A DNA stretch of 40,089 nucleotides from the NCBI GenBank assembly GCA_002245135.1, contig NGBS01000316.1:62001-102089 (forward strand), read 5' to 3'. The translations under genes and the position numbers were made by a program. Below, one piece after another: positions 11,092-32,292 of this stretch; position 1 is the stretch's first letter; every line of letters starts with the position of its first letter. The notes under the pieces are model-generated. The model was not told where the DNA came from. It was given only the letters and a program-made list of their open reading frames with translations, and searched no databases. Origin of the DNA: Proteromonas lacertae (lineage: Eukaryota).

Positions 11092-11097
11092 ATATAT
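11092..11097. repeat. Left target-site duplication ATATAT
   Basis: Identical ATATAT at 32287-32292. Six bp is the usual Polinton TSD length. Because it is palindromic, the exact TIR/TSD boundary is slightly ambiguous. Confidence 0.75.
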
Positions 11098-11151
11098 TAT
11101 AGAGGATATGAATAAACAGGATATTTAGTGTTCCTATACCCAAAATATCCA
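11098..11151 (+). repeat. Left terminal inverted repeat (54 bp)
   Basis: TATAGAGGATATGAATAAACAGGATATTTAGTGTTCCTATACCCAAAATATCCA is the exact reverse complement of 32233-32286. Confidence 0.97.
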
Positions 11152-11208
11152 GTTCTGTTGAATAATTTTGCGGAAAAGTTCTACATCATAATCAGTATAG
11201 CTGTACAA

Positions 11209-11262: not shown

Positions 11263-11490
11263 TCTATAAGTCACTAACCCTAACCCTAGTTAGATCTATT
11301 TAATCATTATTATGTAATTATTTTTTTATAATATTTGATGCATAAATCATCAAAAACATCAAGAATTTATCAAATGAATGATAAATCATCAAATAAATCA
11401 ATTTTATTTTAACAATATAAAAATTGCATCTTGAATTCATTCGACATTTTCCTGAACTTTTCAGCATAAAATATTTTTTGCTTTATTAAC

Positions 11491-12222
11491 ATGTCTCACT
11501 TACATCAAATTGTTTACGTATCTGATAGTGATACAGATAGTGATTATGAGAGAGATATTGATAGTATCTCTAATCCTAAAATCAGAAAAATTTGTAAGAC
11601 AATTTATTTAGAAGATAAGGCTGCTGGTATCAAAAGACCAAAATATAGTATAACTTATATTATATTATAATTTATAGGTGTACCAGTAACAGGTGCTTCA
11701 TTTAACCCTTTTAATCCATACAGGTCTTTATCCATCAAAATTGAGTCACCCAATGGTGAGCCACCAAAAGAAAAATCACCATTATACTCACCAACAACTC
11801 CACCTGATACAGAATCAAATGTTAGACGTTTAATTAACTCTACTGTTCAAGAGCCTCCTCTACCACCACCAATTGTTGCTCATTATGATTATCATCCTGA
11901 AGAGCCTCCAATGGTAATTGCATCATTCAGTACAAATTTACCAGATAAGGACACCTTAACTTATGAAGAGATAAAGAAGCTGAGAAATGAGAGCTTAGTT
12001 GGTAATCGTATTAGAAACGGAAGAAAGAGAGTAAAGGCAATTAGAGAAGATTTAAGCTTTAAAATAGCAGCTGATGTAAACTTGTCAATGGACTTACAAA
12101 GATATTATGATGTAATGTTTAAGAAGAAGGAGTTAGAAGATAAGTTGTTTAAGCATCATAACCTAGAAACAAAACTCTTAAAGAAGATCACCAAGAAGGT
12201 ATTACAAGATAAAACTAATTAG
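11491..12222 (+). CDS. Viral hypothetical protein (233 aa; acidic N-terminus, Pro/Ser-rich middle, basic helical C-terminus) with a 30-nt intron at 11648-11677
   Basis: ATG at 11491 is open to 11647. Removing GTATAAC...TTTATAG (contains an in-frame TAA) joins it in frame to ORF 11911-12222. Confidence 0.8.
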
Positions 12223-12993: not shown

Positions 12994-13692
12994 ATGAGTT
13001 ATTTTGAAGATGAAAATATAGAAGGATTAAAAACATGTTGTCGTACATGTGGCACTATATACAATCTTTATGAAATGGGAAGAAAATCAAATGGTTCTAT
13101 ATATAAAACTTGTATAGCATGCAGAGAAAAATTACGATTACAGTATAAAAATAAAAAGGAGTCTGTTCCATCTTTATCTGAAGAAAAAGGGTTAATTAGT
13201 AATCCATATTTATCAATTAATGATGAAATTGATAGAACAAGATTTGCTAAGTGTGGTAAGTGTAAGAAGATGTTTAGACTAACTGATTTGACTAAAAATA
13301 CTAAAACTAATGAATATTTTCATCAGTGCAATCAGTGTAGAGCATATTGTAAGTGTTATAAGAATTTATTAAAACAAAAGAAATCAATTCTTAATTTAAT
13401 GCATGAGGTATTTCAGTGTAGATGCTGTTCATTGTTCTATGATAATGATTATTTAGGTAAAGAAGAATTAAATGATAAAGTTATGACATTTTTATGTAAA
13501 GGTTGTCTTAGATTTAAGTTAAGATTAAAAACATATAAAAATTTATATAAAGATGAAGTTATAAGTGATAGTCAACTGATGAGATGTTATTATTGCGGTA
13601 TGTTGAGAAAAAAAGAAATAATGACTTATCAAAACATTTGTAATATCTGTATTAAAAAATACCATCATTGTTTAAAAAAACATTCAATATAA
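12994..13692 (+). CDS. Viral zinc-ribbon protein with four CxxC...CxxC units, probable paralog of the upstream gene
   Basis: CRTC..CIAC, CGKC..CNQC, CRCC..CKGC, CYYC..CNIC. Confidence 0.8.
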   Translation: MSYFEDENIEGLKTCCRTCGTIYNLYEMGRKSNGSIYKTCIACREKLRLQYKNKKESVPSLSEEKGLISNPYLSINDEIDRTRFAKCGKCKKMFRLTDLTKNTKTNEYFHQCNQCRAYCKCYKNLLKQKKSILNLMHEVFQCRCCSLFYDNDYLGKEELNDKVMTFLCKGCLRFKLRLKTYKNLYKDEVISDSQLMRCYYCGMLRKKEIMTYQNICNICIKKYHHCLKKHSI

Positions 13693-13762: not shown

Positions 13763-14110
13763 ATGAATATTTCATCAAATACATCTTTAATGAATTCATT
13801 AAAAGATGTATCAACTACAATTGATTCACTTAAAAATGAGATGTATATAGTATTATTTTTGTTAGGTTTATGGGTTTTAAATAAAATTAAAAAAATATGT
13901 GTGTATTTATATCGGAGACATTGCCCAGAAGATATATCAAAAATATTAGATGAACCTGTAACACCAATAACAACAATACCAATGTCGACTTTTATGACTA
14001 GATCAATGCCTCCACCTTCACCAAAAGTATCAAGAGTTCATTCAAATAGATCACTTAATACATATATAGAAGATATTGATATAGATATGAATGAAAAAAA
14101 GAATAATTAG
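13763..14110 (+). CDS. Viral small single-pass membrane protein
   Basis: MYIVLFLLGLWVL hydrophobic stretch followed by basic residues and a Pro/Thr-rich tail. Confidence 0.65.
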   Translation: MNISSNTSLMNSLKDVSTTIDSLKNEMYIVLFLLGLWVLNKIKKICVYLYRRHCPEDISKILDEPVTPITTIPMSTFMTRSMPPPSPKVSRVHSNRSLNTYIEDIDIDMNEKKNN

Positions 14111-14242: not shown

Positions 14243-15844
14243 TTATTGTAAGAAATCATCAAATATACTACCATCATAAGCTGGACTAAATTCAATATCA
14301 TCTGGTTCATTAGTGATTATATTACCATCTTCATCAAAGTTTAATTCAGGATTTTCTTCTTTTAATTTTTGTACATATACTTTTTTTAAAGCAGCTATTT
14401 GCTTTTCCAATTCATTCTCATATTCCAATTTTCGTTTGAAGACATCATACTGAACTTGACCTGAATTCTTTACAATTGTACCAAACGGTTTTGGTACAAT
14501 CTTTACCAAAGGTTTCGGAGGTAATGGTGGTGGTAGTGATTGATTTATTATTGGTGGTGGTTCATTAATTGAAACATCTATTTTCGGAGCTATCGGTTTT
14601 AATGATGGTTGAATAAATCGATTTCTTGTTGCCCAATTGTGTTTGGTATAATGTTCCGGTTCTGATTTTGCTTGCTCTATTTCCTTTATAGTATTCGGAT
14701 TAATGATACTTTTTGGTGTACTAATATTATCATCATTATCCTTAGATTTATCTGTTTTTGATACATCAGCAGCTTTTGGTACATCAACCATTTTATCAAT
14801 AACCTTTACATCAACAACTTTATCAACCTTTTTATCAGCAATAACTTTAGCTACATCATCCTTTTTATCAACAACTTTTGGTGCATCAACAACCTTTTTA
14901 TCACTAACCTTTTTATCATCAACCTTTTCAGCATCAACAACTTTATCAACCTTTTTATCAACAGTAACTTTAGCTACATCAACCTTTTTATCAACAACTT
15001 TTGGTACATCAACAACCTTTTTATCACTAACCTTTTTATCATCAACCTTTTCATCATCAACAACTTTATCAACCTTTTTATCAGCAGTATCTTTAGCTAC
15101 ATCAACCTTTTTATCAACAACTTTTGGTACATCATCAACCTTTTTATCAGCATCAACTTTAACATCCTTTACATTATCAACCTTTACATCATCAACAACT
15201 TTAGCTTTTACAATGTTTATTTTAATGACTTCATTATCATCATCTTCAAAATCATCATCTTCACATACCCAGTCTGTTTCTTTATCATTTAATGCTTCAT
15301 CATTTAATTCTTTGAGACTCTTTTTAGCCTTTTTAGCAGATGGTTTCCTTGTAACAACTTTACGAATTTTTTTAGGTTTATCATTAGTATAAATATCTAC
15401 ATTATCATTGTTTGATTTTCTCTTTACACCACCTAATAATTTTACATCTGAATCAAAGTTGTGTCCAACAGCATATGGACTTATTGATAAAACATCATCT
15501 AGACCTTTAAAGACATTAGCATTTACATAAGACGGATTTTTGTTAATACAACTAAAGAAGTGGTTTATTGCTTCTGCATACTGGATGACTGATGTTAAAG
15601 ATAATAAACTTGGTGAATTGGAATAATGAATGTATTTAATTTTATCATCACAAAAATTTATTATATGTGATGATAACATTTTAATCTTGATCCATTCTTT
15701 TACATCTATGGCATTGTAGCTCTTTCTACTAAACCACTGAGCTATACCTTCATGTTGCTGAGACTTCTTAACAACTTTTGATGTTTTTGATAAAGAATTT
15801 TCTTCTTCAACTCTTGGTGAACTGTGCTTAACACGAATACTCAT
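14243..15844 (-). CDS. Viral hypothetical protein (533 aa) with K/D/V tandem repeats
   Basis: Long ATG-initiated ORF with a globular-looking N-terminus, NLS-like KPKKIRK, DKKVD repeats and a Pro-rich/coiled C-terminus. Confidence 0.8.
   Translation of the reverse strand: MSIRVKHSSPRVEEENSLSKTSKVVKKSQQHEGIAQWFSRKSYNAIDVKEWIKIKMLSSHIINFCDDKIKYIHYSNSPSLLSLTSVIQYAEAINHFFSCINKNPSYVNANVFKGLDDVLSISPYAVGHNFDSDVKLLGGVKRKSNNDNVDIYTNDKPKKIRKVVTRKPSAKKAKKSLKELNDEALNDKETDWVCEDDDFEDDDNEVIKINIVKAKVVDDVKVDNVKDVKVDADKKVDDVPKVVDKKVDVAKDTADKKVDKVVDDEKVDDKKVSDKKVVDVPKVVDKKVDVAKVTVDKKVDKVVDAEKVDDKKVSDKKVVDAPKVVDKKDDVAKVIADKKVDKVVDVKVIDKMVDVPKAADVSKTDKSKDNDDNISTPKSIINPNTIKEIEQAKSEPEHYTKHNWATRNRFIQPSLKPIAPKIDVSINEPPPIINQSLPPPLPPKPLVKIVPKPFGTIVKNSGQVQYDVFKRKLEYENELEKQIAALKKVYVQKLKEENPELNFDEDGNIITNEPDDIEFSPAYDGSIFDDFLQ
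14770..15200. repeat. Coding tandem repeat, about 123-bp (41-aa) unit, roughly 3 copies, built of DKKVD sub-repeats
   Basis: DKKVDDVPKVVDKKVDVAKDTADKKVDKVVDDEKVDDKKVS recurs with few substitutions. Confidence 0.85.
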
Positions 15845-16004: not shown

Positions 16005-17168
16005 TTATGTATATCTTGAATTAGGTCTTATAGTTCTACCAAAAGAACTCTTTCTTATGTTTTTAGGTACAACATATGCTACTATATCATTTTTATCACT
16101 ATCATTTTTGTTTGAATTTATGCTTTTTATTGCACTTAATCTAAATCTACCTTTAGTTTTAATTGCATTCTTAATTTTTCTTAATTCATAAGGTTTAAAT
16201 TTAAATAATCCAAGGTTTTTAGGATTAAATTCAGAAGGAATTGATCCATCTATATTCTTTAATGAATAAGAAAAAGGTGTCTTTTTATCAATCATATAAA
16301 CTTTATCACTAAAATATCTGCTTTTATCTAATTTATTTCTTCTTCTCTCTTTAACTCTAACATATTCATTTTTATTAAATTTAGTATCTTTTAATCTTCG
16401 TTCTTTATTTCTTTGCCTTGATTCTTTATAAAACAAATCTTGTAATTCAAAATCATTATGAACTTCATTTGGTGTATACCCATTAAGCGAACTATGTGGT
16501 TTTGAATTATAATATAATACTACAGTATTTACTATATTAATTAGACCATTAAGATTATTTAATTTATTAAATTCTTCATCATCTAAAGTATTTAAGTATC
16601 TATAGAACATATTTTTGATAGTTCTTACTGCACTATCTAGTATCTTCATTATATTATGTTCATCAGTATCTTTCATTATAAATCTAATATTGTTTTTATT
16701 AAATAGCTGTAAGAACTTATTACCATATATCACACCTGATTCTTGATCCATTAAAATAGAACCTACAAATCTAGCATTTTCATCAGTATGTGCTAAATCT
16801 TGATAAAACCATTTTTCAAATACTGGAAATACGCTTGATTCAGTTTTACTTTTAACATAATATATCCACACTTTTCTACTAACTACTTCAATAATAAATA
16901 AAAAAGGTATGTTTGTATTATTGAAAAAAATAATATCCATTTGATATGAACCAGGTATCTTTTCTATCTCATACTTTATTTTTATTCTATTTTTAACTGC
17001 TACTTGATAATCTGGTTTTGATTCAACTAACTCTTTAGCAGTTCTTGTTATATCAGGTTTTGAATACTTTGATGATAATTCATCAACACTAAATTTTATA
17101 AAATCACTTTTATTTAAATAACCAAAGTCTTTATATAATTCATTTATTTTATGTTGTAAATCAGACAT
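16005..17168 (-). CDS. Retroviral-like (rve) integrase of Polinton/virophage type
   Basis: GSYQMDIIFF, FIIEVVSRKVW, ILMDQES, ILDSAVRTIK, YYNSKPHSSLNGYTP and SH3-like FNKNEYVRVK. First ATG is at 17168. No chromodomain seen. Confidence 0.92.
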   Translation of the reverse strand: MSDLQHKINELYKDFGYLNKSDFIKFSVDELSSKYSKPDITRTAKELVESKPDYQVAVKNRIKIKYEIEKIPGSYQMDIIFFNNTNIPFLFIIEVVSRKVWIYYVKSKTESSVFPVFEKWFYQDLAHTDENARFVGSILMDQESGVIYGNKFLQLFNKNNIRFIMKDTDEHNIMKILDSAVRTIKNMFYRYLNTLDDEEFNKLNNLNGLINIVNTVVLYYNSKPHSSLNGYTPNEVHNDFELQDLFYKESRQRNKERRLKDTKFNKNEYVRVKERRRNKLDKSRYFSDKVYMIDKKTPFSYSLKNIDGSIPSEFNPKNLGLFKFKPYELRKIKNAIKTKGRFRLSAIKSINSNKNDSDKNDIVAYVVPKNIRKSSFGRTIRPNSRYT

Positions 17169-17218: not shown

Positions 17219-20200
17219 TTATTTTTTATGATGTCTATCTTTAAGCCACTTATAATATAATTCTATATCTGCTTTACTTAAACGACATCTAGTAGGATCA
17301 ATACCATTACTTAAAATTGTATTAAAAAATTCTTCTCTTGCTTCATCACTACTAAATCTTAATGTATGTAATTGTGAATTATTATTTATATCATTATCAT
17401 TTCTAATAGGTTTATAAAAAGTATTATCACCTACAGCCATAATTGAATCTGGATCATCATCATAATCTTTTTCTTTTTCAGTATTTGTTACTGTAACTAA
17501 TTCTTTATTATTTGTAGCTGCTACTTCATTTTGTTGATTATTAACTAATGTTATATCAATTTTTCTTCTTTTGTTAATACTTTTTGTTTTAACTTTTTTA
17601 TTATCATCAGTAATAAAATCTTTGTTATAATATTTTGAATTTTTACGTCTCTCATCATTACTTCTTAATACTCTACCTGGTAATGGTGGTGGTGGTTCAT
17701 TAATTAATGTTTTCTTTCTTCTTACAGTTTTCTGTTTTTCAGACTCTTCTAATTCTTTTAATCTTATTTCTTTTAATCTTTCTCTTCTTGCTGCTTTTTC
17801 ATCTCTTGCAAGTTTTTCTTGTAATAATTTTAATTCTTTTTCTTTCTTATCTGCCTCTGAAGCATTTTTTATTGTATGAAGAATATTATTAATAACTTCT
17901 GTTGTTTTATACCCACCATTTTTAACTACATCAATTGCTTTAGATGTAAGATTTATAAAATCATTTAACATATTTCTTCCATTTTCTTCTATATTTATAT
18001 AATGATTTTGAATAGTAGGTTGTGGTGGTGGAGGTTCTTCAATTGGTTGAGTCTCTTGTACATTAGAAATATCTAAAGGAGGAACTTGATGATGAGGTAC
18101 TGGTAGTGACGGTGGTAGTGGTTCTTGAATAGGTAATGGTTCTTGTATATCTTCTATATCATCTTCTATTTCATTATTGTTATCATGAAGTGATATAGTA
18201 GGAATTTCAAATGTTTTACTACTTTTATTTTTCTTACTTCTATTATATTTTCTTTTCTTATTTTTATAAAATGAATAAGTATTTCCATCTTCATCTTCAT
18301 AAACACCATCATCATTATAATCTGTAATAAAATCTTTATATTTTGATGGCCTTTTTTTAATTCTTTTACCTAATAATGAATCATCTGTATTTGTTTCTAC
18401 ATCTCTAGTAACTTCATTTACAGTATTTGTTGATTCATCATTTAATGAAATAGGTAAAGGACTAGTTGATTCATCATTTAATGAAATAGATATAGGACTT
18501 GTTGATTCATCATTATGTGGTGGTGGGGCAGGATGATTAATTATTATAGGTGGTGGAGGATGTATTTCTTGTTGGCTTTGTAATTGTTCTAACTGGTTTT
18601 CTAATTTCTCAATTTCAAACAAATATGTATCTCTTTCTTTTTCTAATTCATAAATTGTTTGATTCATTATTCCTCCTTGTTGAGATATTTGTATTAACTG
18701 TTCATTTATTTGTTTTTGTATATTTTTTAATTCTTCTTGTAATCTTTCTCTCTCACGTATTTCATCTTGTAATTGATTTTCTATTTCTCTTTGTCTATTT
18801 ATATTATCATTTGGTTCAATATCTATATTATTTCCCATTATTAATCTGATTCGATGATTATTAGAATTTATAATATTAGTTGAATCACTAAGAATTAATG
18901 AATTATCATTATTATTAATTATTAAATCAGTTGATCCGTTATCTATAAATGTTCTTGAAGGTGTATTGTTTAACGAAACAACTAAAGGTTGCATATCATT
19001 ACTAGGAGGGAATATTACTCTTAATCTTCTATTAACTGTATCAGTTGATGTACTAGTATCTGATACTGATGGAGGAGGTTCTTGTATTTCTACATCATCA
19101 TATCTTTGATGAATTAAATCTCTATTTGTATATTGATTTACATTATTATGAGGTCTTGTACTAGTTAATATTCTTCTAGGTGATCTAACAATTGAATCTA
19201 TATGATTTCTATCATTAACTATTCCTATATTTGGTATATCAGTTGATGTACTAGTATCTGATACTGGTGGAGGAGGTTCTTGTATTTCTACATCATCATA
19301 TCTTTGATGAATTAAATCTCTATTTGTATATTGATTTACATTATTATGAGGTCTTATTCTAGTTAATATTCTTCTAGGTGATCTAACAATTGAATCTATA
19401 TGATTTCTATCATTAACTATTCCTATATTTGGTATATCAGTTGATGTACTAGTATCTGATACTGGTGGAGGAGGTTCTTGTATTTCTACATCATCATATC
19501 TTTGATGAATTAAATCTCTATTTGTATATTGATTTACATTATTATGAGGTCTTGTACTAGTTAATATTCTTCTAGGTGATCTAACAATTGAATCTATATG
19601 ATTTCTATCATTAACTATTCCTATATTTGGTATATCAGTTGATGTACTAGTATCTGATACTGGTGGAGGAGGTTCATGTATATGTACAACATCATTAATT
19701 TGTGTTCGAAGTCTATTCTTTTTTCGTTTTTTATCTATTACTAATCTTGTTCCATCTCTTGATCTGTAATTATCTCCTGTACCACTTGTATCTACATAAT
19801 AATCATTTAATCTTCCTGGTAAATGAATTTCATCTCTATTTCTTAAATTAGGTCTACCACTATCATTAATTTGAATATGAGGTGAATTGACTGGTGAGTT
19901 GACTTGTGATATAAGTGGTGAATTAGGTGATGGTGGATTCACTACTGGCGGTGGCGGATTCACTATTGGTGGACCTCTACCTGGTGGTGGATTTATTACA
20001 CCTCTACCTGGTGATGGATTTACTACGCCTCTACCTGGATTTACTACAGGAACTCTAAATAGTGGGCCTCTACCTGGTGGTGGATTTACTATACCTCTAC
20101 CTGGATTTACTACAGGAACTCTAAATGGTGGACCTCTACCTGGTGGTGGTGGATTCACTATTGGTGGTCCTCTACCTGGTGGTGGTGGATTCACTATTGG

Positions 20201-21451
20201 TGGTCCTCTACCTGGTGGTGGATTTACTATACCTCTACCTGGATTTATTACAGGAACTCTAAATGGCGGGCCTCTACCTGGTGGTGGATTTACTATACCT
20301 CTACCTGGATTTACTACAGGAACTCTAAATGGTGGACCTCTACCTGGTGGTGGTGGATTCACTATTGGTGGTCCTCTACCTGGTGGTGGTGGATTCACTA
20401 TTGGTGGTCCTCTACCTGGTGGTGGTGGATTCACTATTGGTGGTCCTCTACCTGGTGGTGGTGGATTCACTATTGGTGGTCCTCTACCTGGTGGTGGTGG
20501 ATTCACTATTGGTGGTCCTCTACCTGGTGGTGGATTTATTACACCTCTACCTGGATTCAATATTCCACCTGGTGGTGGATTTACTATACCTCTACCTGGA
20601 TTTACTACAGGAACTCTAAACGGTGGTCGTCTAGCTGGTGGACCTCTACCTGGTATTATTACACCATTACCTCCTGGAACTAAAAGAATTCTACCTCCTG
20701 GTGGTGGTACTGGTGGTCCACCTGGACCTGGACCTGGTATATTAGGTGGTGGTACACCTCCACCACCTGGTGGTGGAGGTGGTGGACCTCCTCCTCCTCC
20801 TCCTGGTGGACCTCCTCCTCCTCCTGGTGGTCCTCCACCACCGCCTGGTGGAGGTGGTGGAGGTGGTGGTGGTGGTGGAGGTGGTGGAGGTGGTGGTGGT
20901 GGTGGAGGTGGTGGATGTGGACCTCCTCCTCCTCCTCCTCCCCCTCCTGGCAGTCCTCCTCCTCCACCACCTGGTCCTCATCTTCTTCTCGTATAAATAA
21001 ATCTAGGATTATGTCGATAAAATTCATCACCTATCATAACTGATTGTTCTACAGGTCCTAAATATTTATCTACATCAGCTGCACTTGCTTTTCCTTGTCT
21101 GATTGCATCTTGATATATTTCAAAGTTTTTCTTTAGTCTATTTTGATTAGGTCTATTTCTTTCAATGTTATTGATTATATGTTCCATTGCTTCATTCATG
21201 TTATTTGTTCTTTTTTGATTTACATTTTGCATATATTCTTTTTGATTAAATTCATTAAAAGCTTCTTCTCTTGCTTTATTTCTTTCAACACTATTCATAT
21301 AATACTTTATCAATTCTGCTTCACTATTCTTTTTAACATGTTTATTGAATCTCTTTACCTTTGCTCTTCTTCTAATACGTTTTAATATTCGCTTCATTAA
21401 TAAATTAGTCATCTTTTTAGATAACTTATTTTTTGATTTTTTATTACGCAT
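17219..21451 (-). CDS. Viral large Pro/Gly-rich, coiled-coil, largely disordered protein (1410 codons) interrupted by one in-frame TGA at 20978-20980
   Basis: ORFs 20978-21475 and 17219-20560 are in the same frame. Manual translation of 20977-20561 shows no further stop and no ATG. First ATG is at 21451. Confidence 0.75.
19041..19675. repeat. Coding tandem repeat, 198-bp (66-aa) unit x about 3.2, near-identical copies
   Basis: TCAGTTGATGTACTAGTATC recurs at 19041, 19239, 19437 and 19635. Confidence 0.95.
19940..20977. repeat. GC-rich coding repeats: 36-bp NPPPPGRGPPIV units, FRVPVVNPGRG variants, poly-Gly/poly-Pro (P23) tracts
   Basis: Repeated GGTGGTGGATTCACTATTGGTGGTCCTCTACCT, plus (GGT/GGA)n and (CCT)n runs. 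Confidence 0.95.
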
Positions 21452-21515: not shown

Positions 21516-22082
21516 TTAATATATAGGTAGTATTGCATCATCACCAGGCATTTTAGCATCTTCTGGAACTGGTTCTAAACCATCCTTTTTATCACCTATG
21601 CTGAATGGATCATCACTACCAGGTACTTTAATAACTTTCTTTTTATTAACAGGTTTTTTAACTGTATCAAGTGTACATGTCTCATCAACATCTAAATCTT
21701 TTTCTACATCTTTAATATTTAAATTATCTAATGCTTTTTCTCTTCTTCTCTTCTCATATAAATTTTTCATTCTTGTTGCTCTAGCTTTCTCTAAATTTTT
21801 AATTCTTTGTAATCTAGCTTCATCACTCAGTCTTATATTCTTTTTAACTGATTGTCTTGTTGGTATATAATTATTATCAATATCATCTAATTCATTAACC
21901 TCAGATTTATCATTAACTAATTCACTTTCACTTTTATTTAATCTATATAATAACTCTGCAATTTCTCTATCAGTTTTACTCATATCTTGAGCTAAAGGTG
22001 TGTTATAATCATCTTCATCAGATGAATCACTATGATAATAATCACGTGTACTTATTATTTTTTTATTTTTATTACTATTCAT
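21516..22082 (-). CDS. Viral hypothetical protein (188 aa) with charged helix
   Basis: ATG-initiated ORF with SDEARLQRIKNLEKARATRMKN, a charged helix of a kind I associate with PLV/virophage hypotheticals. Confidence 0.7.
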   Translation of the reverse strand: MNSNKNKKIISTRDYYHSDSSDEDDYNTPLAQDMSKTDREIAELLYRLNKSESELVNDKSEVNELDDIDNNYIPTRQSVKKNIRLSDEARLQRIKNLEKARATRMKNLYEKRRREKALDNLNIKDVEKDLDVDETCTLDTVKKPVNKKKVIKVPGSDDPFSIGDKKDGLEPVPEDAKMPGDDAILPIY

Positions 22083-22148: not shown

Positions 22149-22919
22149 TTATTTATGCTTAACACTATAAGCTAAAAAGTTTTCTAAATCAAGTTGTGGA
22201 TTATAAATACCTTTTTTATTAAATCCACAAGGTTTTGTTAAACCATTATTAACAGGCATACTTCTTACTCTTCTTCTCTTACCTGCACCATTACTAACTG
22301 GCATTCTTCTTGCAATTAGTTTTCTTAAACCAGCACCATTTTGTTTATATCTTAAACCACCTCTAACTCTTCGTTTACCATAACCGAATTTTGATGATGT
22401 ATTATACACTTTATCAGCTACATCAGCAACTTTATCAAAACCTAATGTATTAGCAACATTACGAGCTTTTCTTGCTATATTGCTTATATACTTCTTCTCT
22501 CTCAATGCACTATTAATCTCTTTTGCTTTTTCAATACCATTTTTAAATTTGTCAGAAGTTACAAAATCTTTAACTTTTGTTATTCCTGATTTTATCCAAC
22601 TACCTAAACCTGCTGATCTAATCAATCTACCATCATTAGCAAACCTATATCTTCTAGTTGTTCTTACTTTTCTTGCTTTTCTTGCATTTCTTCTTTGTTT
22701 TACTTGTCTACAATTTATAGTTAATGAGATTCCATTAGTTTTTCTTCTTCTTAAAGGACATCTTCTTGTAGTAGTTCTTCTAGTTGATCTTCTTCTTCTT
22801 CGTCTACCATAACCCATATTCTCAATACTATCACCAATTGCTGGTCCAGCAAATGGTATTAACTTTGCTGCATTTGATAAAATTTTTGATTTTTTTAACC
22901 AATCTTTAAACTTACCCAT
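22149..22919 (-). CDS. Putative virion core / membrane-lytic precursor (adenovirus pVI/pVII-like): Arg-rich, amphipathic helices, GxG protease-site motifs
   Basis: MGKFKDWLKKSKIL and GLGSWIKSGITKVKDF amphipathic segments; MGYG-RRRRRR, FGYG-KRR, NGAG-LRK, NGAG-KRRR, VRGG-L. Lies head-to-head with the protease gene. Confidence 0.65.
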   Translation of the reverse strand: MGKFKDWLKKSKILSNAAKLIPFAGPAIGDSIENMGYGRRRRRRSTRRTTTRRCPLRRRKTNGISLTINCRQVKQRRNARKARKVRTTRRYRFANDGRLIRSAGLGSWIKSGITKVKDFVTSDKFKNGIEKAKEINSALREKKYISNIARKARNVANTLGFDKVADVADKVYNTSSKFGYGKRRVRGGLRYKQNGAGLRKLIARRMPVSNGAGKRRRVRSMPVNNGLTKPCGFNKKGIYNPQLDLENFLAYSVKHK

Positions 22920-22991: not shown

Positions 22992-23555
22992 ATGAATATA
23001 TTCACTAATGTTTATGCTTATGGTAGTAGAGTGATAGATAGTAATAATATTAAAACAGATGCAATATCAAATCATGACATAATTAAAATAATGACATTTT
23101 TTCCTGCAGCTAATAAATATTTTAAAGGTGTATATTTATGGAATGAAAATCAATATATTAATAAATATAAAGATTGTAATAAATGGTGTGTTATACTATG
23201 CACAAATAAAACAAGTGATAAGAGATCAAAAATTGGTCACTGGGTTAGTTTAATTATTGATAATGATAAAAAAGAGATATTATATTATGATAGCTTTGGT
23301 GAACCACCAAAAGAAATAAAAAAATTTTATAAAAGAATGCAAAGATGTAAGAAATACCCTGATGAATTATATCAAATTAAAATAAATAGAGTAAAACATC
23401 AAAGAACTAATAGTGCAAGATGCGGATATCATGCAATTTTATTTTTATTATCAATATTAGATAATAATAAAACATTTAAAGAAGCAACTAATTTTAATAC
23501 AATTGAAGGTGAAGCTAAAGCAAAATTATTACAAAATAAATTTAAAATGATTTAA
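22992..23555 (+). CDS. Adenain/Ulp1-like (clan CE) cysteine maturation protease
   Basis: GHWVSL (His), YYDSFG (Asp), HQ..NSARCGYH (Gln, Cys). Confidence 0.92.
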   Translation: MNIFTNVYAYGSRVIDSNNIKTDAISNHDIIKIMTFFPAANKYFKGVYLWNENQYINKYKDCNKWCVILCTNKTSDKRSKIGHWVSLIIDNDKKEILYYDSFGEPPKEIKKFYKRMQRCKKYPDELYQIKINRVKHQRTNSARCGYHAILFLLSILDNNKTFKEATNFNTIEGEAKAKLLQNKFKMI

Positions 23556-23968
23556 TTATTTTTATTATTATTATTATCTGTGTATGTTGATTTAGTTTTT
23601 AAAAACTTTTGTTCTTCTATATAACCAGGTTGATCACTATCCCAATGATAACCAATTATAGAATGCCATGCATCATTTGTCTTCATCTTAAACTCTAAAC
23701 GAAGATATGTTTCTTCTAATGATGTTATTACATTTGAATCAATAAAATGTCTTTCATCATTCACAGTTCTACAGATTTGTAACTTCTTCCAAGCCTTTCT
23801 CACTATTTCTCTAACAGCTTCTCTCTTAAAAACTGATTGATATTCCCAAAAATCATAATAATTACTAGCTTCACAAAGCAAGTTATCTACCTGATTAAGC
23901 ATTTCATCAAATTGCTCTTTTGTACATACACTTATAAAATACTTGTATTTTTTATCGAAAATATACAT
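23552..23968 (-). CDS. Viral hypothetical protein (138 aa)
   Basis: ATG at 23968. Its stop overlaps the protease stop in a shared TTAA (23552-23555). Confidence 0.65.
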   Translation of the reverse strand: MYIFDKKYKYFISVCTKEQFDEMLNQVDNLLCEASNYYDFWEYQSVFKREAVREIVRKAWKKLQICRTVNDERHFIDSNVITSLEETYLRLEFKMKTNDAWHSIIGYHWDSDQPGYIEEQKFLKTKSTYTDNNNNKNN

Positions 23969-23995: not shown

Positions 23996-26140
23996 CTAAA
24001 AATATTTTGATTTTTTATACATATAGCCGTTATGTAACAAATGTTTTCTTCTTCTCTTACCTGTACCATATAAATCAGTATGAGCTAATACATTATCTTG
24101 TTCAGTAGTAAATTCAGGATGATGTATATCATTATAAATATATACATATTTTTTAAGTGATCTATGTATAACAACAACAACTTTATCATTAAATTTACAT
24201 AGAAAAGGATAGTTATAATATTTATATACACCATCATTAGGCATATCTAATAAATAATTATTTATTTGAATTTGACATCGATCTAAAACATACCAGTCTT
24301 GACTATTTTCATAATAATTAGGTATGATACTTAATGTAGCACATACAATTTTCTTTTCTTCTTCAGTTTGTCCAGGTTGTTCACCCCAATTTATGTGATA
24401 TCTTTTTGGGAATAAAACATTACTATTTTTAGCTTCTTCATCATCTATTATATTAATCAAGGGACACATTAAATATAAATCTTCCTTAGCTTTACTTAAA
24501 TTACTATGAAAGAATCTTAATTGACATTCAGCATAAGTATTTATAGAATAATCATAACCATAAAATCTTAACATATTTGATTTCTTTTTTAATTTATCGA
24601 AGGGATATATTTCTGAATTTTTAATAGGCAATTGAATATTGAATTTATTTACATATGCTATAAAATTATCATAAGAAACATTATCTTTTAATATTACTAT
24701 CTTTTCATTTTTAAATTTGTTATTCATATAACCTTGAACATCATATATATAAGTTATCAAATGAAATAAATCTACTGCATAAATATGAAGTAGCTGTTCC
24801 AACGATAATTTTCTCACATTACTTTTATTAGTTATAAATGTATTAGGATCTTCATCATTAAATCTATATAAAACAAATGTAGGAGGTTTTAAATCAGTAC
24901 TTTTCGTAAAATTAATACTATTTTTACTATTTGGTTCATATTTTAAATTTTGAGAATCTAAACGAAATGGAACTTCATCATATACCCAATCTGTTTCAGA
25001 ATCAGTATCATTATTATTATCTACTGATGTAACAGGTTCATTTGGAGCTTCTGAATCTACTGGTGTAACAGGTTCAGTTGGGGCTTCTGAATCTACATCA
25101 TCATTATTTTGAAATATTGATGAATAAGGTACTTGTCTTGTAGTACCATCTAATCTAAAATGATTAACTGTATCTGGTGGAGCAGTCGGATGTGATGGTG
25201 GTGTTATTGGTGAATATACCGGTGATACCTCTCTTGGTATTTCATTATTATTACTATAATCACTTGAAACTAAAGGTGGTGGTATTGGTAAATCATTTTC
25301 ATCATAATTAAGTCTATATGTATCATCATCAATATCATCTTGTACTGATTGAGCTTGTTGTTGTTGTGGTGGTGGTGGTGGTGATGATGGTTGAGGTTGA
25401 GAGTGTTGTTGTTGTTGTGGAACAACAGGTTGTTGTACCACATTATTTCTAAAATTTACATTTACATTACCTCTATTAGGATTTGTAACTTGATATCTTC
25501 CATTATAATCTGCTGATAAAGCTTCTTCAACAGGTAATAATGGTGGAAAAGAACTGATATATTTTTTCTTTTGTGCTAATCTATTCATATAAAACATAAT
25601 TGCATCAGCATAATGATTTGTATCTCTTTGTCCTTCTTTTATATTATTTGATTCAAGTATTTTTTGAATTGTTGCTATGTAATTCATTCTATATCCATTA
25701 GAAGCAGATGATGGTAAACCCATTATATTTCTTTTGTCATAATCAGGAGGTTCAGGATATACATTACCATCTCTTAAACTAGGTATTTTATACTTACTAA
25801 TAAAAAATAATTCTGTAACACAATTATATATCAATACAGCTATAGAGAATGCTGTTCTTTCTTGTTGTGCAGTTATATACCAAAATTTCGTTTTCATTAA
25901 CTTATTAATAAATATTCTTATCTTATTAATTGTTACAGAACAATACACTTGAATCGTTTGTGAATGAATTGATCTATCTATTAAAGGTTGATTTTCATAA
26001 GGATCATCAGGTAAATCATCATCATCTTCCTCATCATCATTATTACTATCTTCATTATTATTTTGTTGTTGTTGTGAATGTGGTTGAATTGATTGATTCA
26101 TAATCGTTATTATCATATATATCTTTATCATCTTCTTCAT
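23996..26140 (-). CDS. Viral hypothetical protein (about 700 aa) with Q/P-rich linker and C-terminal LYGTG-KRRRK motif; may be fused to the upstream ORF
   Basis: Long ORF with two globular-looking regions. Start is uncertain (26140 or 26101, or a frameshift from 26058-26807). Confidence 0.75.
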   Translation of the reverse strand: MKKMIKIYMIITIMNQSIQPHSQQQQNNNEDSNNDDEEDDDDLPDDPYENQPLIDRSIHSQTIQVYCSVTINKIRIFINKLMKTKFWYITAQQERTAFSIAVLIYNCVTELFFISKYKIPSLRDGNVYPEPPDYDKRNIMGLPSSASNGYRMNYIATIQKILESNNIKEGQRDTNHYADAIMFYMNRLAQKKKYISSFPPLLPVEEALSADYNGRYQVTNPNRGNVNVNFRNNVVQQPVVPQQQQHSQPQPSSPPPPPQQQQAQSVQDDIDDDTYRLNYDENDLPIPPPLVSSDYSNNNEIPREVSPVYSPITPPSHPTAPPDTVNHFRLDGTTRQVPYSSIFQNNDDVDSEAPTEPVTPVDSEAPNEPVTSVDNNNDTDSETDWVYDEVPFRLDSQNLKYEPNSKNSINFTKSTDLKPPTFVLYRFNDEDPNTFITNKSNVRKLSLEQLLHIYAVDLFHLITYIYDVQGYMNNKFKNEKIVILKDNVSYDNFIAYVNKFNIQLPIKNSEIYPFDKLKKKSNMLRFYGYDYSINTYAECQLRFFHSNLSKAKEDLYLMCPLINIIDDEEAKNSNVLFPKRYHINWGEQPGQTEEEKKIVCATLSIIPNYYENSQDWYVLDRCQIQINNYLLDMPNDGVYKYYNYPFLCKFNDKVVVVIHRSLKKYVYIYNDIHHPEFTTEQDNVLAHTDLYGTGKRRRKHLLHNGYMYKKSKYF

Positions 26141-26789
26141 TAAAAGGTTGTGTATGATCTTTTGTTTCTTTTTGTATTTTTCTAATTCTTTTATTTTCTA
26201 ATTTAACAACATTCAATCTTTCTTTAGGATGAAGCACAACAAATGGATTATTTCTTAATATATAATTAGAAGCAATACATAATTCATCAATAGCTTTATT
26301 TAATCTATCAACAATTATTTTAACATCATTGTTTGTTTCATAGCTATATTGATATAATGATTTATTTCTTGAAAACGGTCCATGTTGATATAACGATTTA
26401 CACCAGTTAAATAACTTCATATGTACATCATATAAATTATAGATTCTATTAAACTCATGATCAGGCCATCCTACTGGTATAAGTCTCTTATCAATTATTT
26501 CATCTAATCTAAATCTTGTTAACTTTTTTGCATTATCATATATAATATCTTCATAATCTTCATTACTAAGATGTTCATCATTGCCTACAATACTTATATT
26601 ATCAGAATCAGTATTTTCTTCTGTTTCATCATCATCATCATCATTATTAGCATTAACAGAATTATTACTATTATTAATACCATTATTACTAGAATTGCTA
26701 CGACTGTTATTATTTGAGTTATCTACTGCTGTACCTTCATCATCATCAAAATTTAATAAATCTCTACGTATTCTATTACGATTGTTCAT
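26058..26789 (-). CDS. Viral hypothetical protein (N/D-rich N-terminus, helical domain)
   Basis: ORF 26058-26807 with first ATG at MNNRNR. Overlaps the next ORF in another frame. Confidence 0.7.
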   Translation of the reverse strand: MNNRNRIRRDLLNFDDDEGTAVDNSNNNSRSNSSNNGINNSNNSVNANNDDDDDETEENTDSDNISIVGNDEHLSNEDYEDIIYDNAKKLTRFRLDEIIDKRLIPVGWPDHEFNRIYNLYDVHMKLFNWCKSLYQHGPFSRNKSLYQYSYETNNDVKIIVDRLNKAIDELCIASNYILRNNPFVVLHPKERLNVVKLENKRIRKIQKETKDHTQPFNEEDDKDIYDNNDYESINSTTFTTTTK

Positions 26790-26841: not shown

Positions 26842-27810
26842 ATGCAACCTAAGAGTGATACTAATAAATTAGGTCATAGAAGAGCAATTTTTTTATCATC
26901 AACTGATATTATTGAAAGAGAGTCAGATGTATATACAAAGTGTTTATCAACACCTGTTATAACTGAAGAATATCAGTATATTACGTTAAACATAGCAAGA
27001 ATATCAAACAATAACATATACACTATTCAAAATGATGTTAATGAAAAAGTATGTTTTGATATAGAATATTTTCATGTAAATGATCCTATAAAACCCTTAA
27101 ATGATCCAAGCGTAATATTAAGCGGACCAAAATTAAATACATTAGAGATAAAGATACCACAAAATCATTATAGTGGTGAAGAGTTTTTAAATTATTTAAC
27201 AAAGAGTATGTTAACTGAATTAAAATTTACTACACTAGTACGTAAAGATATTTTACCTGTAAAAGAAAAAGATGAAGATGAAAGTTTTAATTATTTCTTA
27301 CATCCTCAAGCTGGAGATAAGATATTTGACTGGTATGATAAGACTACGAATAGATTAAAATTATATTGTGCAATATATACTCACTTTGGTAATTATATAC
27401 TAACAAAAATAAAAATGCGAATGCCTAACCTATTTGGTAGGTTATTAGGTAGTAATGTAATAGATGACGAATTAATTATATTAGATAGTAATCCATCGCA
27501 TAGTTGGGGTACAAAAGAACAATACTATGATCATAAATTTTTATTAACACCATCACTTATATGGTGTAATGTAATACAAGTTAGATGTAGTTGGGTTAAT
27601 AATGGTGAGAATTCAGCTGTTTTAGCAAACATACCTATAACTGATATATCAAACACAAATATAACATGGGTTAATCCACAAATAGATTGGTCAACTAAAA
27701 AGATGCAATTTCATGATTATCAAAAAATAAAGTTCAATCTATCAAATGAAGATGGTTATGCTATAGATTTAACTAATATATCATTTCAATTTGAGATAAT
27801 AGTTTATTAA
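26842..27810 (+). CDS. Minor capsid (penton) protein, single jelly-roll
   Basis: IPQNHYS..EF, RLLG, IQVRCS, VLANIPI and IKFNLSNEDGYAIDL..F.FEI match the Polinton/PLV penton pattern. Lies directly upstream of the MCP. Confidence 0.82.
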   Translation: MQPKSDTNKLGHRRAIFLSSTDIIERESDVYTKCLSTPVITEEYQYITLNIARISNNNIYTIQNDVNEKVCFDIEYFHVNDPIKPLNDPSVILSGPKLNTLEIKIPQNHYSGEEFLNYLTKSMLTELKFTTLVRKDILPVKEKDEDESFNYFLHPQAGDKIFDWYDKTTNRLKLYCAIYTHFGNYILTKIKMRMPNLFGRLLGSNVIDDELIILDSNPSHSWGTKEQYYDHKFLLTPSLIWCNVIQVRCSWVNNGENSAVLANIPITDISNTNITWVNPQIDWSTKKMQFHDYQKIKFNLSNEDGYAIDLTNISFQFEIIVY

Positions 27811-27872: not shown

Positions 27873-29402
27873 ATGAATAATATAACAACTGTACCACAAT
27901 CTCAAATTCATAACAGTGTTGTACCAACATTAATACCTGATTATGTCTACATTCCTATTACACCTAACCAAACAAGAGATGTAGTTGTTTTAAGTCAAAC
28001 ATCATCAACTGATACAATAACTTTTGAATTATCACCAGATAGTTGTATGAATTTATCAAAATCTTATCTCGATTTTGATTTAATAATCGATCCTCATATA
28101 GTATCTGCAAATCCTGGTAATCCTGCTGCAGCTGGTAATGCATATACTATAGCAGGACGAGCAGCAGCAGCATTACCAGGTCCTGCAGTAGGTGAAACTC
28201 ATGCTTTAAGATTAAGAAACACAATGAATTTTAATTCAATTAAAGTATACAACAAAACAGGAACAGTATTATGCGATTTAGATAACAGCTATAATGAATA
28301 TAGAGACTTAATGCATGAATTATCTTATCATTGTCCAGATGATGTGAAAGGTATTAAATATTATGATGATACATTTGATGGATGTCATGTAGCAAAAGAT
28401 AAAGCAAATGGTCAATATGAAGTAATAGATCCATTATTATTACATTATACTCCTGGTAATAGAACAAGATCTAGATGTGGTCTTAAAGAAGAACATTATA
28501 TGGAAGTGATAGATCCTGTAGGAGGTGCACCAATGGTTGATATAAGAATAAAAAGGCATTGCCGATTTCATTTTGCTGATTTATTTAATACAATTTTATC
28601 ATGCAAAAGTGATATTTATTTTGGTGAAACAATTTATATTTCAATAACATTTGCAGGAATTAATTCATGGATATTATATAAGCATAAATTAATTGCACAA
28701 ACAGCTGAGGCTGATCATGATGGAGAAAGCTATTATGATGAATGGACAAGATTTATTGAAATGAATATAATAAATCCAAAATTATATGTTGCATATAATA
28801 AAAGTCCACAATGTAATGCAAATACAATTAATTATGTTACTCATCATGGTATAGATTTTACTGATTTCAATATAGTTCAGTTAGTAAAAGATACTATTAC
28901 AGGTGATCCTAATTTTAGCTATAATTTTACTATTAATAGTAGTTTAGGTCCTTATGTGAAATATATATTATATAGAGTTTATATGAATAATGTTGCAACT
29001 AGAACACCTTTACCTTTTAAGTTTGCTGATGATAGAGTTAAATGGCAAATAAATGATACACCATGTACACCAGATTATTTAAATATAACTAAATATGAAA
29101 CATTTGAAAAATTATATCCTATAATTAGAGGAACATATTTTGAGAGATGTCATCAAGAAATTGATTGGTATGAAAGATTTTTTGATATATTAAATTTCGG
29201 AAGTGATTCATTAACTGATATAAAATCAAGAGCAGGTAGAGATTTAAGTAAAGATTTAAAAATTACTTTTGAAGCAAGAAATCATGTTTTTGATACAAAT
29301 AATACTGCTCATCATGCAGTAATGACATATCATCACAAGTTCTACATTATAACAGGTAAGATGTTAATCATCTCAGCTAGAGGAGTAGAGAAGGTGATTT
29401 AA
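27873..29402 (+). CDS. Major capsid protein, double jelly-roll (divergent)
   Basis: 509 aa, beta-rich. N-terminal TITFELSPDSCMNLSKSYLDFDL and FNSIKVYNKTGTVLCDL patterns. Sits between penton and ATPase. Confidence 0.82.
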   Translation: MNNITTVPQSQIHNSVVPTLIPDYVYIPITPNQTRDVVVLSQTSSTDTITFELSPDSCMNLSKSYLDFDLIIDPHIVSANPGNPAAAGNAYTIAGRAAAALPGPAVGETHALRLRNTMNFNSIKVYNKTGTVLCDLDNSYNEYRDLMHELSYHCPDDVKGIKYYDDTFDGCHVAKDKANGQYEVIDPLLLHYTPGNRTRSRCGLKEEHYMEVIDPVGGAPMVDIRIKRHCRFHFADLFNTILSCKSDIYFGETIYISITFAGINSWILYKHKLIAQTAEADHDGESYYDEWTRFIEMNIINPKLYVAYNKSPQCNANTINYVTHHGIDFTDFNIVQLVKDTITGDPNFSYNFTINSSLGPYVKYILYRVYMNNVATRTPLPFKFADDRVKWQINDTPCTPDYLNITKYETFEKLYPIIRGTYFERCHQEIDWYERFFDILNFGSDSLTDIKSRAGRDLSKDLKITFEARNHVFDTNNTAHHAVMTYHHKFYIITGKMLIISARGVEKVI

Positions 29403-29455: not shown

Positions 29456-30217
29456 ATGTTTAAGTTTGAAAAAATAAATAACATAAGGGTTGAACCTGTA
29501 GATGGTGGTGAAAAATTCAATCCTAAGAAGATAGTTGGTTATGATTATTTCAATGAGCCATTTTGTAACATTTTTATAGTTGCTCGTAAAAATAGTGGTA
29601 AGACTACTCTCATCTATAATATATTAAGACATGTTTTGGATCCAAGATATAAAGAAAAACAACATGTTCACTTCTTTGTGGGAACTATCAAACAAGACAA
29701 GTTATATGATTCAATCAAAGAATTACTCGATTATCACGAAATTGATTATGATGAAAATGATTCACTCATTGATCCAGAGTCAGGTGAGAATGTGGTAGAG
29801 AGAATGATGAAAGAAATAAATGATGTTGATAAAGATAATTATTCTTATGCTGAGCATATTATGATCTTTGATGATCTTAGTTTAGAATTAAAAACATCAA
29901 CAATAATACCTGTACTGATGAAAGAAAATAGACATTTAAAATCAAAAATTATTATTAGTAGTCAATATATAACAGATATAGTACCAGCAGCTAGATCACA
30001 AGTTGATTATTGTCTTACATTTTATGGGTTAAGTAATAGAAATCTATTTGATTTATACAACTCATTAAATATATGGATCCCTGAGTATGAAACATTTAAA
30101 AAATTATATCTTGCAGTCACTAAACCACAATTCAATTTTTTATATATTGATAATGTTAAAAAAGTCTTTAGAGCAAATTTTAATATTATGATTGAAGATC
30201 ATTCTGAAGTTTCTTAA
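29456..30217 (+). CDS. A32-like FtsK/HerA genome packaging ATPase
   Basis: Walker A ARKNSGKTT, Walker B IMIFDD, NRH..IIISSQ, ARSQVDY, FLYID. Confidence 0.93.
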   Translation: MFKFEKINNIRVEPVDGGEKFNPKKIVGYDYFNEPFCNIFIVARKNSGKTTLIYNILRHVLDPRYKEKQHVHFFVGTIKQDKLYDSIKELLDYHEIDYDENDSLIDPESGENVVERMMKEINDVDKDNYSYAEHIMIFDDLSLELKTSTIIPVLMKENRHLKSKIIISSQYITDIVPAARSQVDYCLTFYGLSNRNLFDLYNSLNIWIPEYETFKKLYLAVTKPQFNFLYIDNVKKVFRANFNIMIEDHSEVS

Positions 30218-30272: not shown

Positions 30273-30944
30273 ATGTTTATTGGGGATAGAAATAAAGTTG
30301 ATGTATTAGATGAAGATAAATTAATAGATGATATTACAAATAATATTACAGATAAATTAGATGAAGTGAAAGATCAAATTCTAACAGTATGTAATACAAT
30401 AAATAGTGTAGTAAATAATATACCTCGTACTATAATACCAAGACCTTATTGTTTGCATAAACAACATACATTTTATTCTATGAAAAGAAAATATTTAGTT
30501 AATGGATCACCTGTATGGGATACTAAAATTACTAAAATACCAATCAAAATAGAGATGTTTGAGCATTTTATGAAGATTAAATTATATGATGGTTTTACAT
30601 GTAATTATAGTGGATATATAGGTCATCAATTATATTTAGATGAAGATGATATCATCAAAGCTGAACCTGGTAGAGATGAATATTTACAACGTTATTATAA
30701 TATACTACTAGGATTATACTCTAATAAATTATTCCCCATTAGAGCAACAAATGTTAAAGATACTTATCATACATTAACTAATAGACCTTATTATGAGATA
30801 AAACATACATTAGTTAATAATAATAATAATCAACCTACATTATGTATTGTAGCTGATCAATACCCTAATCAAGAATATCTTGCAATACCAAGACAGACAT
30901 TCTTCACAGATTATATGAACACAGGTATTACAGAATTCTTTTAA
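30273..30944 (+). CDS. Putative fibre/spike-like protein 1
   Basis: MFIGDRN N-terminus, heptad-like stalk and beta-rich C-domain shared with the next gene. Function is inferred. Confidence 0.55.
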   Translation: MFIGDRNKVDVLDEDKLIDDITNNITDKLDEVKDQILTVCNTINSVVNNIPRTIIPRPYCLHKQHTFYSMKRKYLVNGSPVWDTKITKIPIKIEMFEHFMKIKLYDGFTCNYSGYIGHQLYLDEDDIIKAEPGRDEYLQRYYNILLGLYSNKLFPIRATNVKDTYHTLTNRPYYEIKHTLVNNNNNQPTLCIVADQYPNQEYLAIPRQTFFTDYMNTGITEFF

Positions 30945-31044
30945 TATAATAATAATAATAATAATAATAATACGTATATATAAATCAGTTTTAAATTTCT
31001 TGATGAATTTAATAGATTTTATATTTTTTATAATATATAAAATT

Positions 31045-31929
31045 ATGTTTATTGGTGATAGAAATAATAATACATTAGATATTGATACAAAAGAGATTGC
31101 AAGTGAGATATCAAAAAATGTTAGTGTTAATATAGATATTCAAACATTATCAGATTCTATATCACAAAAGATTCAAATACCAACACCTAATATAACTGTA
31201 GATAGTAATAGTATATCAACCTATATAAATCAACCAATAAATGATAATACTGATACTAAAACAAAAGCAATAAAAGATGAAGTAGATCAAATTTATAATG
31301 AAGTTGATACAATAAGAAATATTGAAAGAGTTGTAGGTTGTAATGATTATAATACTGATGAAGAATTATATATGACTCAAGGTTTTGGTAAATATGATTC
31401 AATTTATAATCATCTTAAATTAATAAATATATATAACCCACAACCTTATAGTATTCAAATTACTACATGGACTGTAAAAGTTACTAGAACAGATAATACA
31501 TCATCAATTATAGATCAGATACCTATTAAAGTTACAATATTCATGAATTCTATAAGAATCAAAATTTATAATACACATCAATTAATTTATAATGATAGAT
31601 CAGATATAAAACAAATTGATATTTATCTAGATGATAATCATTTATTATCAAAATTATATAGTAATCAATCTGTATTAACTGATTTTTATAATAAGCTTAT
31701 TGAAAAATACCCTAATGATGGTAGTAATTGTATAGTATTCCCATTACAAGTTTATAATAATTCTCAATACCCATCAGAATACATACCAACACATTTTATA
31801 TTAATAAATGATAATAAACCTAATCTACATTTACAAAGTGATAGTATTGAAGGTTATCAAAAACAATGTATATTACCTGGTGTTATTGAAACTATGTATA
31901 TTGATTACAGTATTATCAATCCTTTATAA
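31045..31929 (+). CDS. Putative fibre/spike-like protein 2, paralog of 30273-30944
   Basis: ATG at 31045 gives the identical MFIGDRN. QPY..IPIKVTIFMNSIRIKIY matches RPY..IPIKIEMFEHFMKIKLY. Confidence 0.55.
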   Translation: MFIGDRNNNTLDIDTKEIASEISKNVSVNIDIQTLSDSISQKIQIPTPNITVDSNSISTYINQPINDNTDTKTKAIKDEVDQIYNEVDTIRNIERVVGCNDYNTDEELYMTQGFGKYDSIYNHLKLINIYNPQPYSIQITTWTVKVTRTDNTSSIIDQIPIKVTIFMNSIRIKIYNTHQLIYNDRSDIKQIDIYLDDNHLLSKLYSNQSVLTDFYNKLIEKYPNDGSNCIVFPLQVYNNSQYPSEYIPTHFILINDNKPNLHLQSDSIEGYQKQCILPGVIETMYIDYSIINPL

Positions 31930-32232: not shown

Positions 32233-32286
32233 TGGATATTTTGGGTATAGGAACACTAAATATCCTGTTTATTCATATCCTCTATA
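32233..32286 (-). repeat. Right terminal inverted repeat (54 bp)
   Basis: Exact reverse complement of 11098-11151. Confidence 0.97.
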
Positions 32287-32292
32287 ATATAT
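32287..32292. repeat. Right target-site duplication ATATAT
   Basis: Matches 11092-11097. Confidence 0.75.

Follow-up and report, generated by a model that had tools for sequence, protein, structure and literature searches.

Polintons/Mavericks (as outlined in PMC8097293) and the Blastocystis 'MELD' virus (as outlined in PMC8502044) resemble the element described here in having terminal inverted repeats (TIRs), a 6-bp target-site duplication (TSD), an rve integrase, a cysteine protease, a packaging ATPase, a double-jelly-roll (DJR) capsid and a length of about 20 kb. The MELD virus, in the available text of PMC8502044, also has divergent virion proteins, and it carries both PolB and an integrase, whereas the present element has no recognised protein-primed PolB (pPolB). 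Protist Polinton-like viruses (PLVs) are, like this element, endogenous, about 21 kb long and equipped with a capsid module, and pPolB is often absent from them (PMC10120064, PMC9356565 and PMC12721341, in their accessible portions). The available part of 10.64898/2026.07.28.741278 describes it as unsettled, for most endogenous PLVs, whether transcription is the work of the host nucleus or of a helper giant virus.

Intact vertebrate Mavericks are reported to be intronless in the accessible portion of PMC8097293, and the endogenous viral genes of the PLV surveys PMC10120064 and PMC9356565, which were called with ORF finders, lack introns according to the passages available. The Oxyrrhis PLV is described as having no GT-AG introns (PMC12721341, in extract), and cryptophyte PLVs carry group I introns (PMC12220804, in extract). 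Unlike the PLVs of PMC10120064, PMC9356565 and PMC12721341, as far as these extracts go, the present element has one predicted host-type intron, and those of its capsid relatives that were looked up are all Logan proteins. Spliceosomal-type introns in full-length integrated polinton-like elements, as here, are known from dinoflagellate eupolintoviral proviruses (PMC12166617, in extract); those are repeated, transposon-derived introners, mostly non-coding, whereas the one in this element is 30 nt long, has no second copy in the window and interrupts a coding gene. In the punuivirus GEVE of Chlamydomonas (10.64898/2026.10.09.758095, in extract), host-type introns are enriched in the host-read latency genes and the virion genes are under a viral promoter motif. 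That virus is a giant of 506 genes in which the split was demonstrated by RNA-seq, whereas here there are 17 genes and the split is predicted from sequence. PBCV-1 (PMC3946568, in extract), a DJR-capsid virus without an RNA polymerase and a presumed user of host Pol II, has a spliceosomal intron in its DNA polymerase gene; it is a lytic giant virus with its intron in a known enzyme gene, and the present element differs in both respects. A literature search by title and opening of the abstract found no spliced early gene in a polymerase-less PLV, and supplements could list introns in individual PLVs. The surprise is moderate, given that published examples of introns exist for polinton-like proviruses as well as for latent giant viruses.

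The element spans 11098-32286 of the window, i.e. of the whole 40,089-nt stretch of DNA analysed. It is 21.2 kb long, carries 17 genes (g1 to g17) and is integrated in a protist chromosome. Its features, with the basis of each in brackets, are as follows.

11092..11097, no strand: left target-site duplication ATATAT, 6 bp (sequence)
11098..11151, + strand: left terminal inverted repeat, 54 bp, with no difference from its right-hand counterpart (sequence)
11437..11450, + strand: motif of the initiator-plus-flank kind ahead of g1, a predicted core promoter for Pol II (14-mer match)
11491..11647, + strand: g1 exon 1, 52 codons and 1 nt
11648..11677, + strand: predicted host-type GTAT..TAG intron, 30 nt, with in-frame TAA (host-intron profile and coding model)
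11678..12222, + strand: g1 exon 2, a Pro/Ser-rich part predicted to be disordered, then a basic predicted helix of ~85 residues
12390..12902, + strand: g2, Cys-rich protein with weak HNH/Zn-ribbon-like matches (profile search)
12994..13692, + strand: g3, Cys-rich protein (ORF)
13763..14110, + strand: g4, small protein with a hydrophobic stretch (ORF)
14243..15844, - strand: g5, KD/V-repeat protein (ORF)
16005..17168, - strand: g6, rve-type integrase (PF00665, E 3.8e-4, below the Pfam cut-off; the 6-bp TSD is consistent)
17219..21451, - strand: g7, long frame of Pro/Gly repeats, interrupted by one TGA near 20978 (ORF)
21516..22082, - strand: g8, protein (ORF)
22149..22919, - strand: g9, Arg/Lys-rich protein (composition)
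22992..23555, + strand: g10, adenain/Ulp1-like cysteine protease (profile search)
23552..23968, - strand: g11, protein (ORF)
23996..26789, - strand: g12, a single ~930-aa gene interrupted by a frameshift (comparison with homolog P0034)
26842..27810, + strand: g13, without a family match
27873..29402, + strand: g14, double-jelly-roll major capsid protein, 509 aa (fold comparison)
29456..30217, + strand: g15, A32-like packaging ATPase, weak match (profile search)
30273..31929, + strand: g16 and g17, both beginning MFIGDRN (ORF)
32233..32286, - strand: right terminal inverted repeat, 54 bp (sequence)
32287..32292, no strand: right target-site duplication ATATAT, 6 bp (sequence)

Like a Polinton-like virus, the element has a DJR major capsid protein and an A32-like ATPase, and its 21.2 kb fall within 15-40 kb. 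With Polintons/Mavericks it shares TIRs, a 6-bp TSD and an rve integrase (below the cut-off), but no match to the pPolB expected of them was found in any element frame scanned; a very divergent enzyme is possible, since g12 was assigned to no family. The element thus resembles a Polinton-like virus and does not pass for a Polinton by the pPolB test. No polymerase or helicase of any kind was recognised in the element frames scanned, an Rfam search of the element found nothing, and scans for the capsid, the ATPase and the TIR found no other locus. The fold of the g14 capsid protein matches those of iridovirus and PBCV-1 (E ~2e-12) and of mavirus and Sputnik (E ~1e-10), at 6-10% identity. Among 1.84 billion representatives it has 18 relatives, and the 10 of these 18 that were looked up are all unnamed Logan proteins on short contigs.

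The basic composition of g9 points to a likely virion core protein. It contains repeated GYG-RRR and NGAG-K/L motifs, which might be cleavage sites for the element's own protease, by analogy with adenovirus core proteins. By its position and size, g13 is likely to be a minor capsid protein. The common start of g16 and g17 suggests a duplicated pair, perhaps fibre-like. Two frames of the element are broken. In g7, a basic frame of 157 aa and 1252 open codons of Pro/Gly repeats lie on either side of an in-frame TGA at 20975-20980 (-). There is no host-like intron there, and the TGA may be a programmed read-through, decay or an error. The frameshift in g12 lies within 26058-26197 (-); a hidden intron was rejected there, since the Logan homolog P0034 is continuous and the break has no host-like donor.

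The insertion interrupts the 5' end of a host EGF/Sig-like gene (10980-11097 and 32287-33616), which lies on the same strand as g1 and is probably disrupted by the element. The host is likely to be a stramenopile: the flanking EGF protein resembles clusters in which Oomycota is mostly the commonest taxon; one of them is named Sig2, and the top-ranked cluster lists Ciliophora. A Blastocystis-like lineage, as it appears in the accessible text of PMC12129017, would be in keeping with the low GC of the host, its short variable introns and its normal stop codons. A degenerate inverted repeat extends the TIRs inward (11152-11420 and 31950-32232; local score 91, against a shuffled maximum of 69), and the tips of the TIRs are identical while the inner parts of the repeat at both ends have diverged. 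A telomere-like CCCTAA tandem, whose 12-mer is unique in the window, lies between the left TIR and g1 at 11276-11290. The identical 54-bp TIRs, the intact TSD and the low decay indicate a young insertion: one unexplained stop in 18,435 coding nt corresponds to ~0.1% divergence if decay is neutral, with an upper bound of ~0.45%, and only ~0.04 decay stops are expected in g1. So little decay since insertion makes a later gain of the g1 intron unlikely, and the intron is likely to be older than the current insertion. A host gene at 37222-40089, presumably of the bromodomain type and with PHD assigned by a profile match, has several frame switches without clear introns. These suggest residual indel errors, so that some of the breaks in the element may be assembly errors.

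The stretch 11648-11677 (+) in g1 has the form GTAT..TAG, is 30 nt long with 10% GC, and carries an in-frame TAA. When it is left out, the frame runs from the ATG at 11491 to the TAG at 12222 in 233 codons, and the intron is in phase 1. The original prediction had proposed this very intron and this 233-aa ORF, and its coordinates and sequence are exact; the host introns of 25, 26, 29 and 36 nt to which it had likened the stretch are all four present among the host candidates. As in U2-type spliceosomal introns, the ends are GT-AG, the size and composition are those of the host's introns, and removal of the 30 nt restores the frame with coding sequence on both sides. The stretch is judged, with high confidence, to be a real spliceosomal intron, and very probably g1 would need host Pol II and the spliceosome to be expressed. 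Alternative in-frame splice sites in g1 are a donor at 11627 and acceptors at 11686 and 11692. Two of these were scored against the host profile: donor 11627 reaches 10.9 and acceptor 11686 reaches 10.1, whereas the 30-nt intron reaches 19.4. RNA folding across the intron is weak (z -2.2). With up to 3 mismatches allowed, the intron sequence occurs once in the 40-kb window, so that there is no second copy there. A reading of the TAA as Gln was rejected, since frames of both element and host end in TAA under the standard code.

The statement that this is the only intron in the element holds for introns that break a frame, but three candidates of the UTR type also score as host-like. These are high-scoring GTAT..TAG stretches at 30974-31015, 14110-14140 and 31962-31984 (+), in UTR positions of g17 and g4, and it is possible that they are UTR introns. 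A 27-nt in-frame candidate inside the capsid gene was rejected, the residues there being conserved in relatives. In the host, similar patterns precede start codons at 36220-36260 (-) and 36436-36477 (+) and are possibly 5'-UTR introns.

The host set used for comparison consists of 18 intron candidates, chosen by eye from the results of two scans, one for joined frames and one for the pattern. For 14 of them, removal links open frames, in some cases within EGF and PHD domains, and the other 4 are based on pattern only. All 18 are of the form GTAT..TAG and 25-47 nt long (median 33.5), with a mean GC of 14%. The profile used to rank stretches across the element was built from 17 of them, candidate 4766-4793 being dropped as a possible promoter. 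When the 2911 GT..AG stretches of 22-51 nt that the two strands of the element contain are ranked against this profile, the g1 intron comes first. Its score of 19.4 is near the top of the host leave-one-out range of 7.1-20.2. None of the 1759 sense candidates in the other element ORFs scores as high. When single-base nonsense changes were simulated in those ORFs, a strictly host-like, frame-restoring intron bracketed 9 of 2610 (0.35%). Relaxed rules 'explained' 368 of the 2610 simulated stops and any GT..AG as many as 1646, so that the case for the intron rests on the strict match to the host.

A cross-validated coding model, trained without introns, agrees with this assignment. None of the 5947 overlapping leave-one-out coding 33-mers scores as low as the intron read in frame. 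Exon 1, at 22 bits, lies above all 54 non-coding windows and above 77 of the 209 coding windows, while 11680-11910 is strongly coding at 60 bits. A non-coding intron between coding sequence in exon 1 and in 11680-11910 argues against a simple stop and also against two separate ORFs.

The sequences upstream of the genes contain two motifs, both fixed as patterns after looking. The first is the 14-mer TCATTYBNNNWTTY, applied after the pattern had been seen, which we take to be the oomycete initiator-plus-flank (INR+FPR) consensus. Related strings, YCAYTYY and MWTTTNC, occur in the accessible text of PMC3599244, and the longer promoter string was not found in the literature search. The 14-mer lies upstream of 4 of the 17 genes only, g1, g2 (-42), g3 (-41) and g5 (-54 and -47), all at the left end of the element, with positions from -41 to -54 (shuffle mean 0.3, P 0.001, antisense 0). 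Taken singly, neither half reaches significance (INR, P 0.076; FPR, P 0.165). Over the whole window there are 11 matches against 4.75 expected, none of them upstream of a host start placed in the window. The second motif, WTTCTW, occurs within -70 of 13 of the 17 starts (shuffle mean 6.7) and at -35 to -14 in 10 of 17 genes against 1.4 expected. It is present at the capsid, ATPase, protease and basic-protein genes and absent at g1, g5, g11 and g12. A de novo k-mer scan is borderline after correction (family-wise P ~0.055). The upstream sequences suggest two overlapping gene classes, which are not clean, since g2 and g3 carry both motifs, overlapping one another. The mimivirus early promoter was rejected, AAAATTGA being found upstream of 0 of 17 genes, with a 7-of-8 match at -71 of g1.

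The search for g1 homologs that the original prediction had proposed found none, host or other. Exon 2 has no relative among 5.8 billion proteins (searched at lengths of 99-315 aa only) and none in the ESM Atlas, IMG/VR, JGI metagenomes, phage records, Pfam or PHROGs, and its two weak matches in a PDB sequence search are probably due to chance. Exon 1 has no match in Pfam or PHROGs, the databases scanned with it. In a single-sequence model, exon 2 consists of ~95 disordered residues followed by one helix of ~85 residues, with pLDDT mostly >90, and the last 91 residues of g1 include 24 Lys/Arg. A bZIP assignment was rejected because there is no Pfam match at E up to 1 and the leucine heptads are irregular.

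Several short motifs of g1, chosen after inspection and to be taken as leads, would suit a nuclear protein. Exon 1 opens with a SIM-like motif, IVYV and then an Asp/Ser run, in agreement with the consensus of an hhXh core and, after it, acidic or phosphorylatable Ser residues (shuffle P 0.0002). The motif is absent from the 18 other element frames scanned. It resembles the SIM of Daxx described in the available part of PMC8616421 and is a putative SUMO-binding motif; the same part of that paper warns that the consensus is degenerate. Exon 1 also has KRPK, common by itself (P 0.13). YSPTTP occurs in exon 2 (P 0.001), as do K(K/R)x(K/R) motifs, which fall short of significance. The synonymous GC3 of g1 (52/228) is higher than that of the other element genes (499/6014, P 6e-11) and that of host exons (443/3455, P 8e-5), an excess driven by Lys, Glu, Ile and Asn codons. 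This is consistent with a gene acquired from a source less rich in AT, or with one selected for translation by the host, and does not single out the present host as donor; the codon classifier is noisy, one host EGF gene having scored as virus-like.

That g1 has no intron is very unlikely. In that case the TAA would stem from decay or from faulty assembly, or else two products would be made, a 59-aa peptide and a separate 103-aa protein from the ATG at 11911. The element does contain another in-frame stop and a frameshift without introns, the frame switches of the nearby host gene do suggest residual indel errors, and loose splice rules do 'explain' 14-63% of random stops. However, the 33-nt in-frame reading is less coding-like than every coding window, the sequence just downstream of the intron is strongly coding, and the strict null explains few stops. 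Also very unlikely is that the intron arose after insertion, by intronisation on the part of the host, perhaps with the interrupted host gene's promoter reading through into the element. Such a gain would suit an element at the 5' end of a host gene oriented as g1 is, and introners are described as colonising integrated elements in dinoflagellates (PMC12166617, in extract), but decay of at most ~0.45%, an intron with no second copy in the window and an initiator-like motif belonging to g1 itself all argue against it.

The two other alternatives accept the intron as it stands. In one, g1, perhaps with the other left-end genes, is transcribed by the host from the provirus, and the virion genes are read, as in virophages, by the polymerase of a helper giant virus through WTTCTW. 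A positional motif common to 10 of the 17 genes, the lack of a recognised polymerase or helicase, and a capsid fold that matches mavirus and Sputnik about as well as others would all suit a helper, and the PLV PgVV-14T and mavirus/Sputnik do use helper promoters. This alternative is nonetheless unlikely: the mimivirus early motif that PgVV-14T uses is upstream of none of the 17 genes, a gut giant-virus survey found no gene flux between egoviruses and Blastocystis, which matters if the host is Blastocystis-like, and host Pol II, aided by an activator of viral origin, could likewise read a shared late motif, as in systems of the herpesvirus type. In the other, g1 travels as a passenger: a eukaryotic gene was taken up in DNA form, intron included, beside the TIR, and it is spliced but does not regulate the element. 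Its GC3, above that of both virus and host, its place at the end of the element and its fully host-like intron speak for capture. We consider it quite improbable, as g1 has no homolog among 5.8 billion proteins even though a close relative of the host is represented there (P0031, 85% identity), and its promoter class is common to g2, g3 and g5.

The reading preferred here, with a probability of about 0.5 on the evidence of sequence, is that g1 is a spliced, host-read early or latent regulator and that the virion genes make up a second tier. Because the substrates of spliceosomes are Pol II transcripts in the nucleus, a required intron places the transcription of g1 there, which is where the preferred reading, the helper-virus alternative and the passenger alternative alike would put it. 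An intron in g1 alone says nothing direct about the other 16 genes. The proposal that host Pol II and the spliceosome transcribe the element in the nucleus stands for g1, with its host-type intron, initiator-like motif and short protein motifs of a nuclear type, but was not borne out for the whole element, in which 13 of 17 genes share a motif that g1 lacks. The accompanying suggestion that g1 is an immediate-early regulator is plausible. A captured host gene, the other suggestion, is possible, with codon use that differs from virus and host alike and no homolog in the searches made.

In the mechanism proposed for the preferred reading, host Pol II would start at the initiator-like motif about 50 nt before the g1 ATG, and the host spliceosome would remove the 30-nt intron from the transcript. 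The predicted 233-aa product, with its disordered part, SUMO-binding-like motif, NLS-like motifs, proline-directed phosphosites and long basic helix, would enter the nucleus and act, through its coiled coil, as a regulator on SUMO-marked chromatin or transcription factors. There it would relieve silencing or switch on the WTTCTW-marked genes, so that the virion-gene program would be separately controlled and come after g1. Replication would depend on the host or on another element, given that no polymerase was recognised. The gene itself would have come with its intron from a eukaryotic source before the current insertion, as its atypical codon use suggests.

A more specific and quite doubtful extension of this reading, drawn by analogy, is that the element represents a polymerase-less, integrase-bearing stramenopile PLV lineage that fits a two-tier program of the punuivirus type into 17 genes. 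A single spliced, host-promoter-driven, SUMO-binding regulator next to the TIR would then act as a latency-to-lytic switch, as spliced herpesvirus immediate-early genes do, and the virion genes would follow through a short late motif, without a giant-virus helper. For g1 itself, the host-type intron would be a built-in marker of transcription by host Pol II. Gene calling from ORFs only, as used in PLV surveys, would give g1 as a 103-aa fragment and miss its exon 1.
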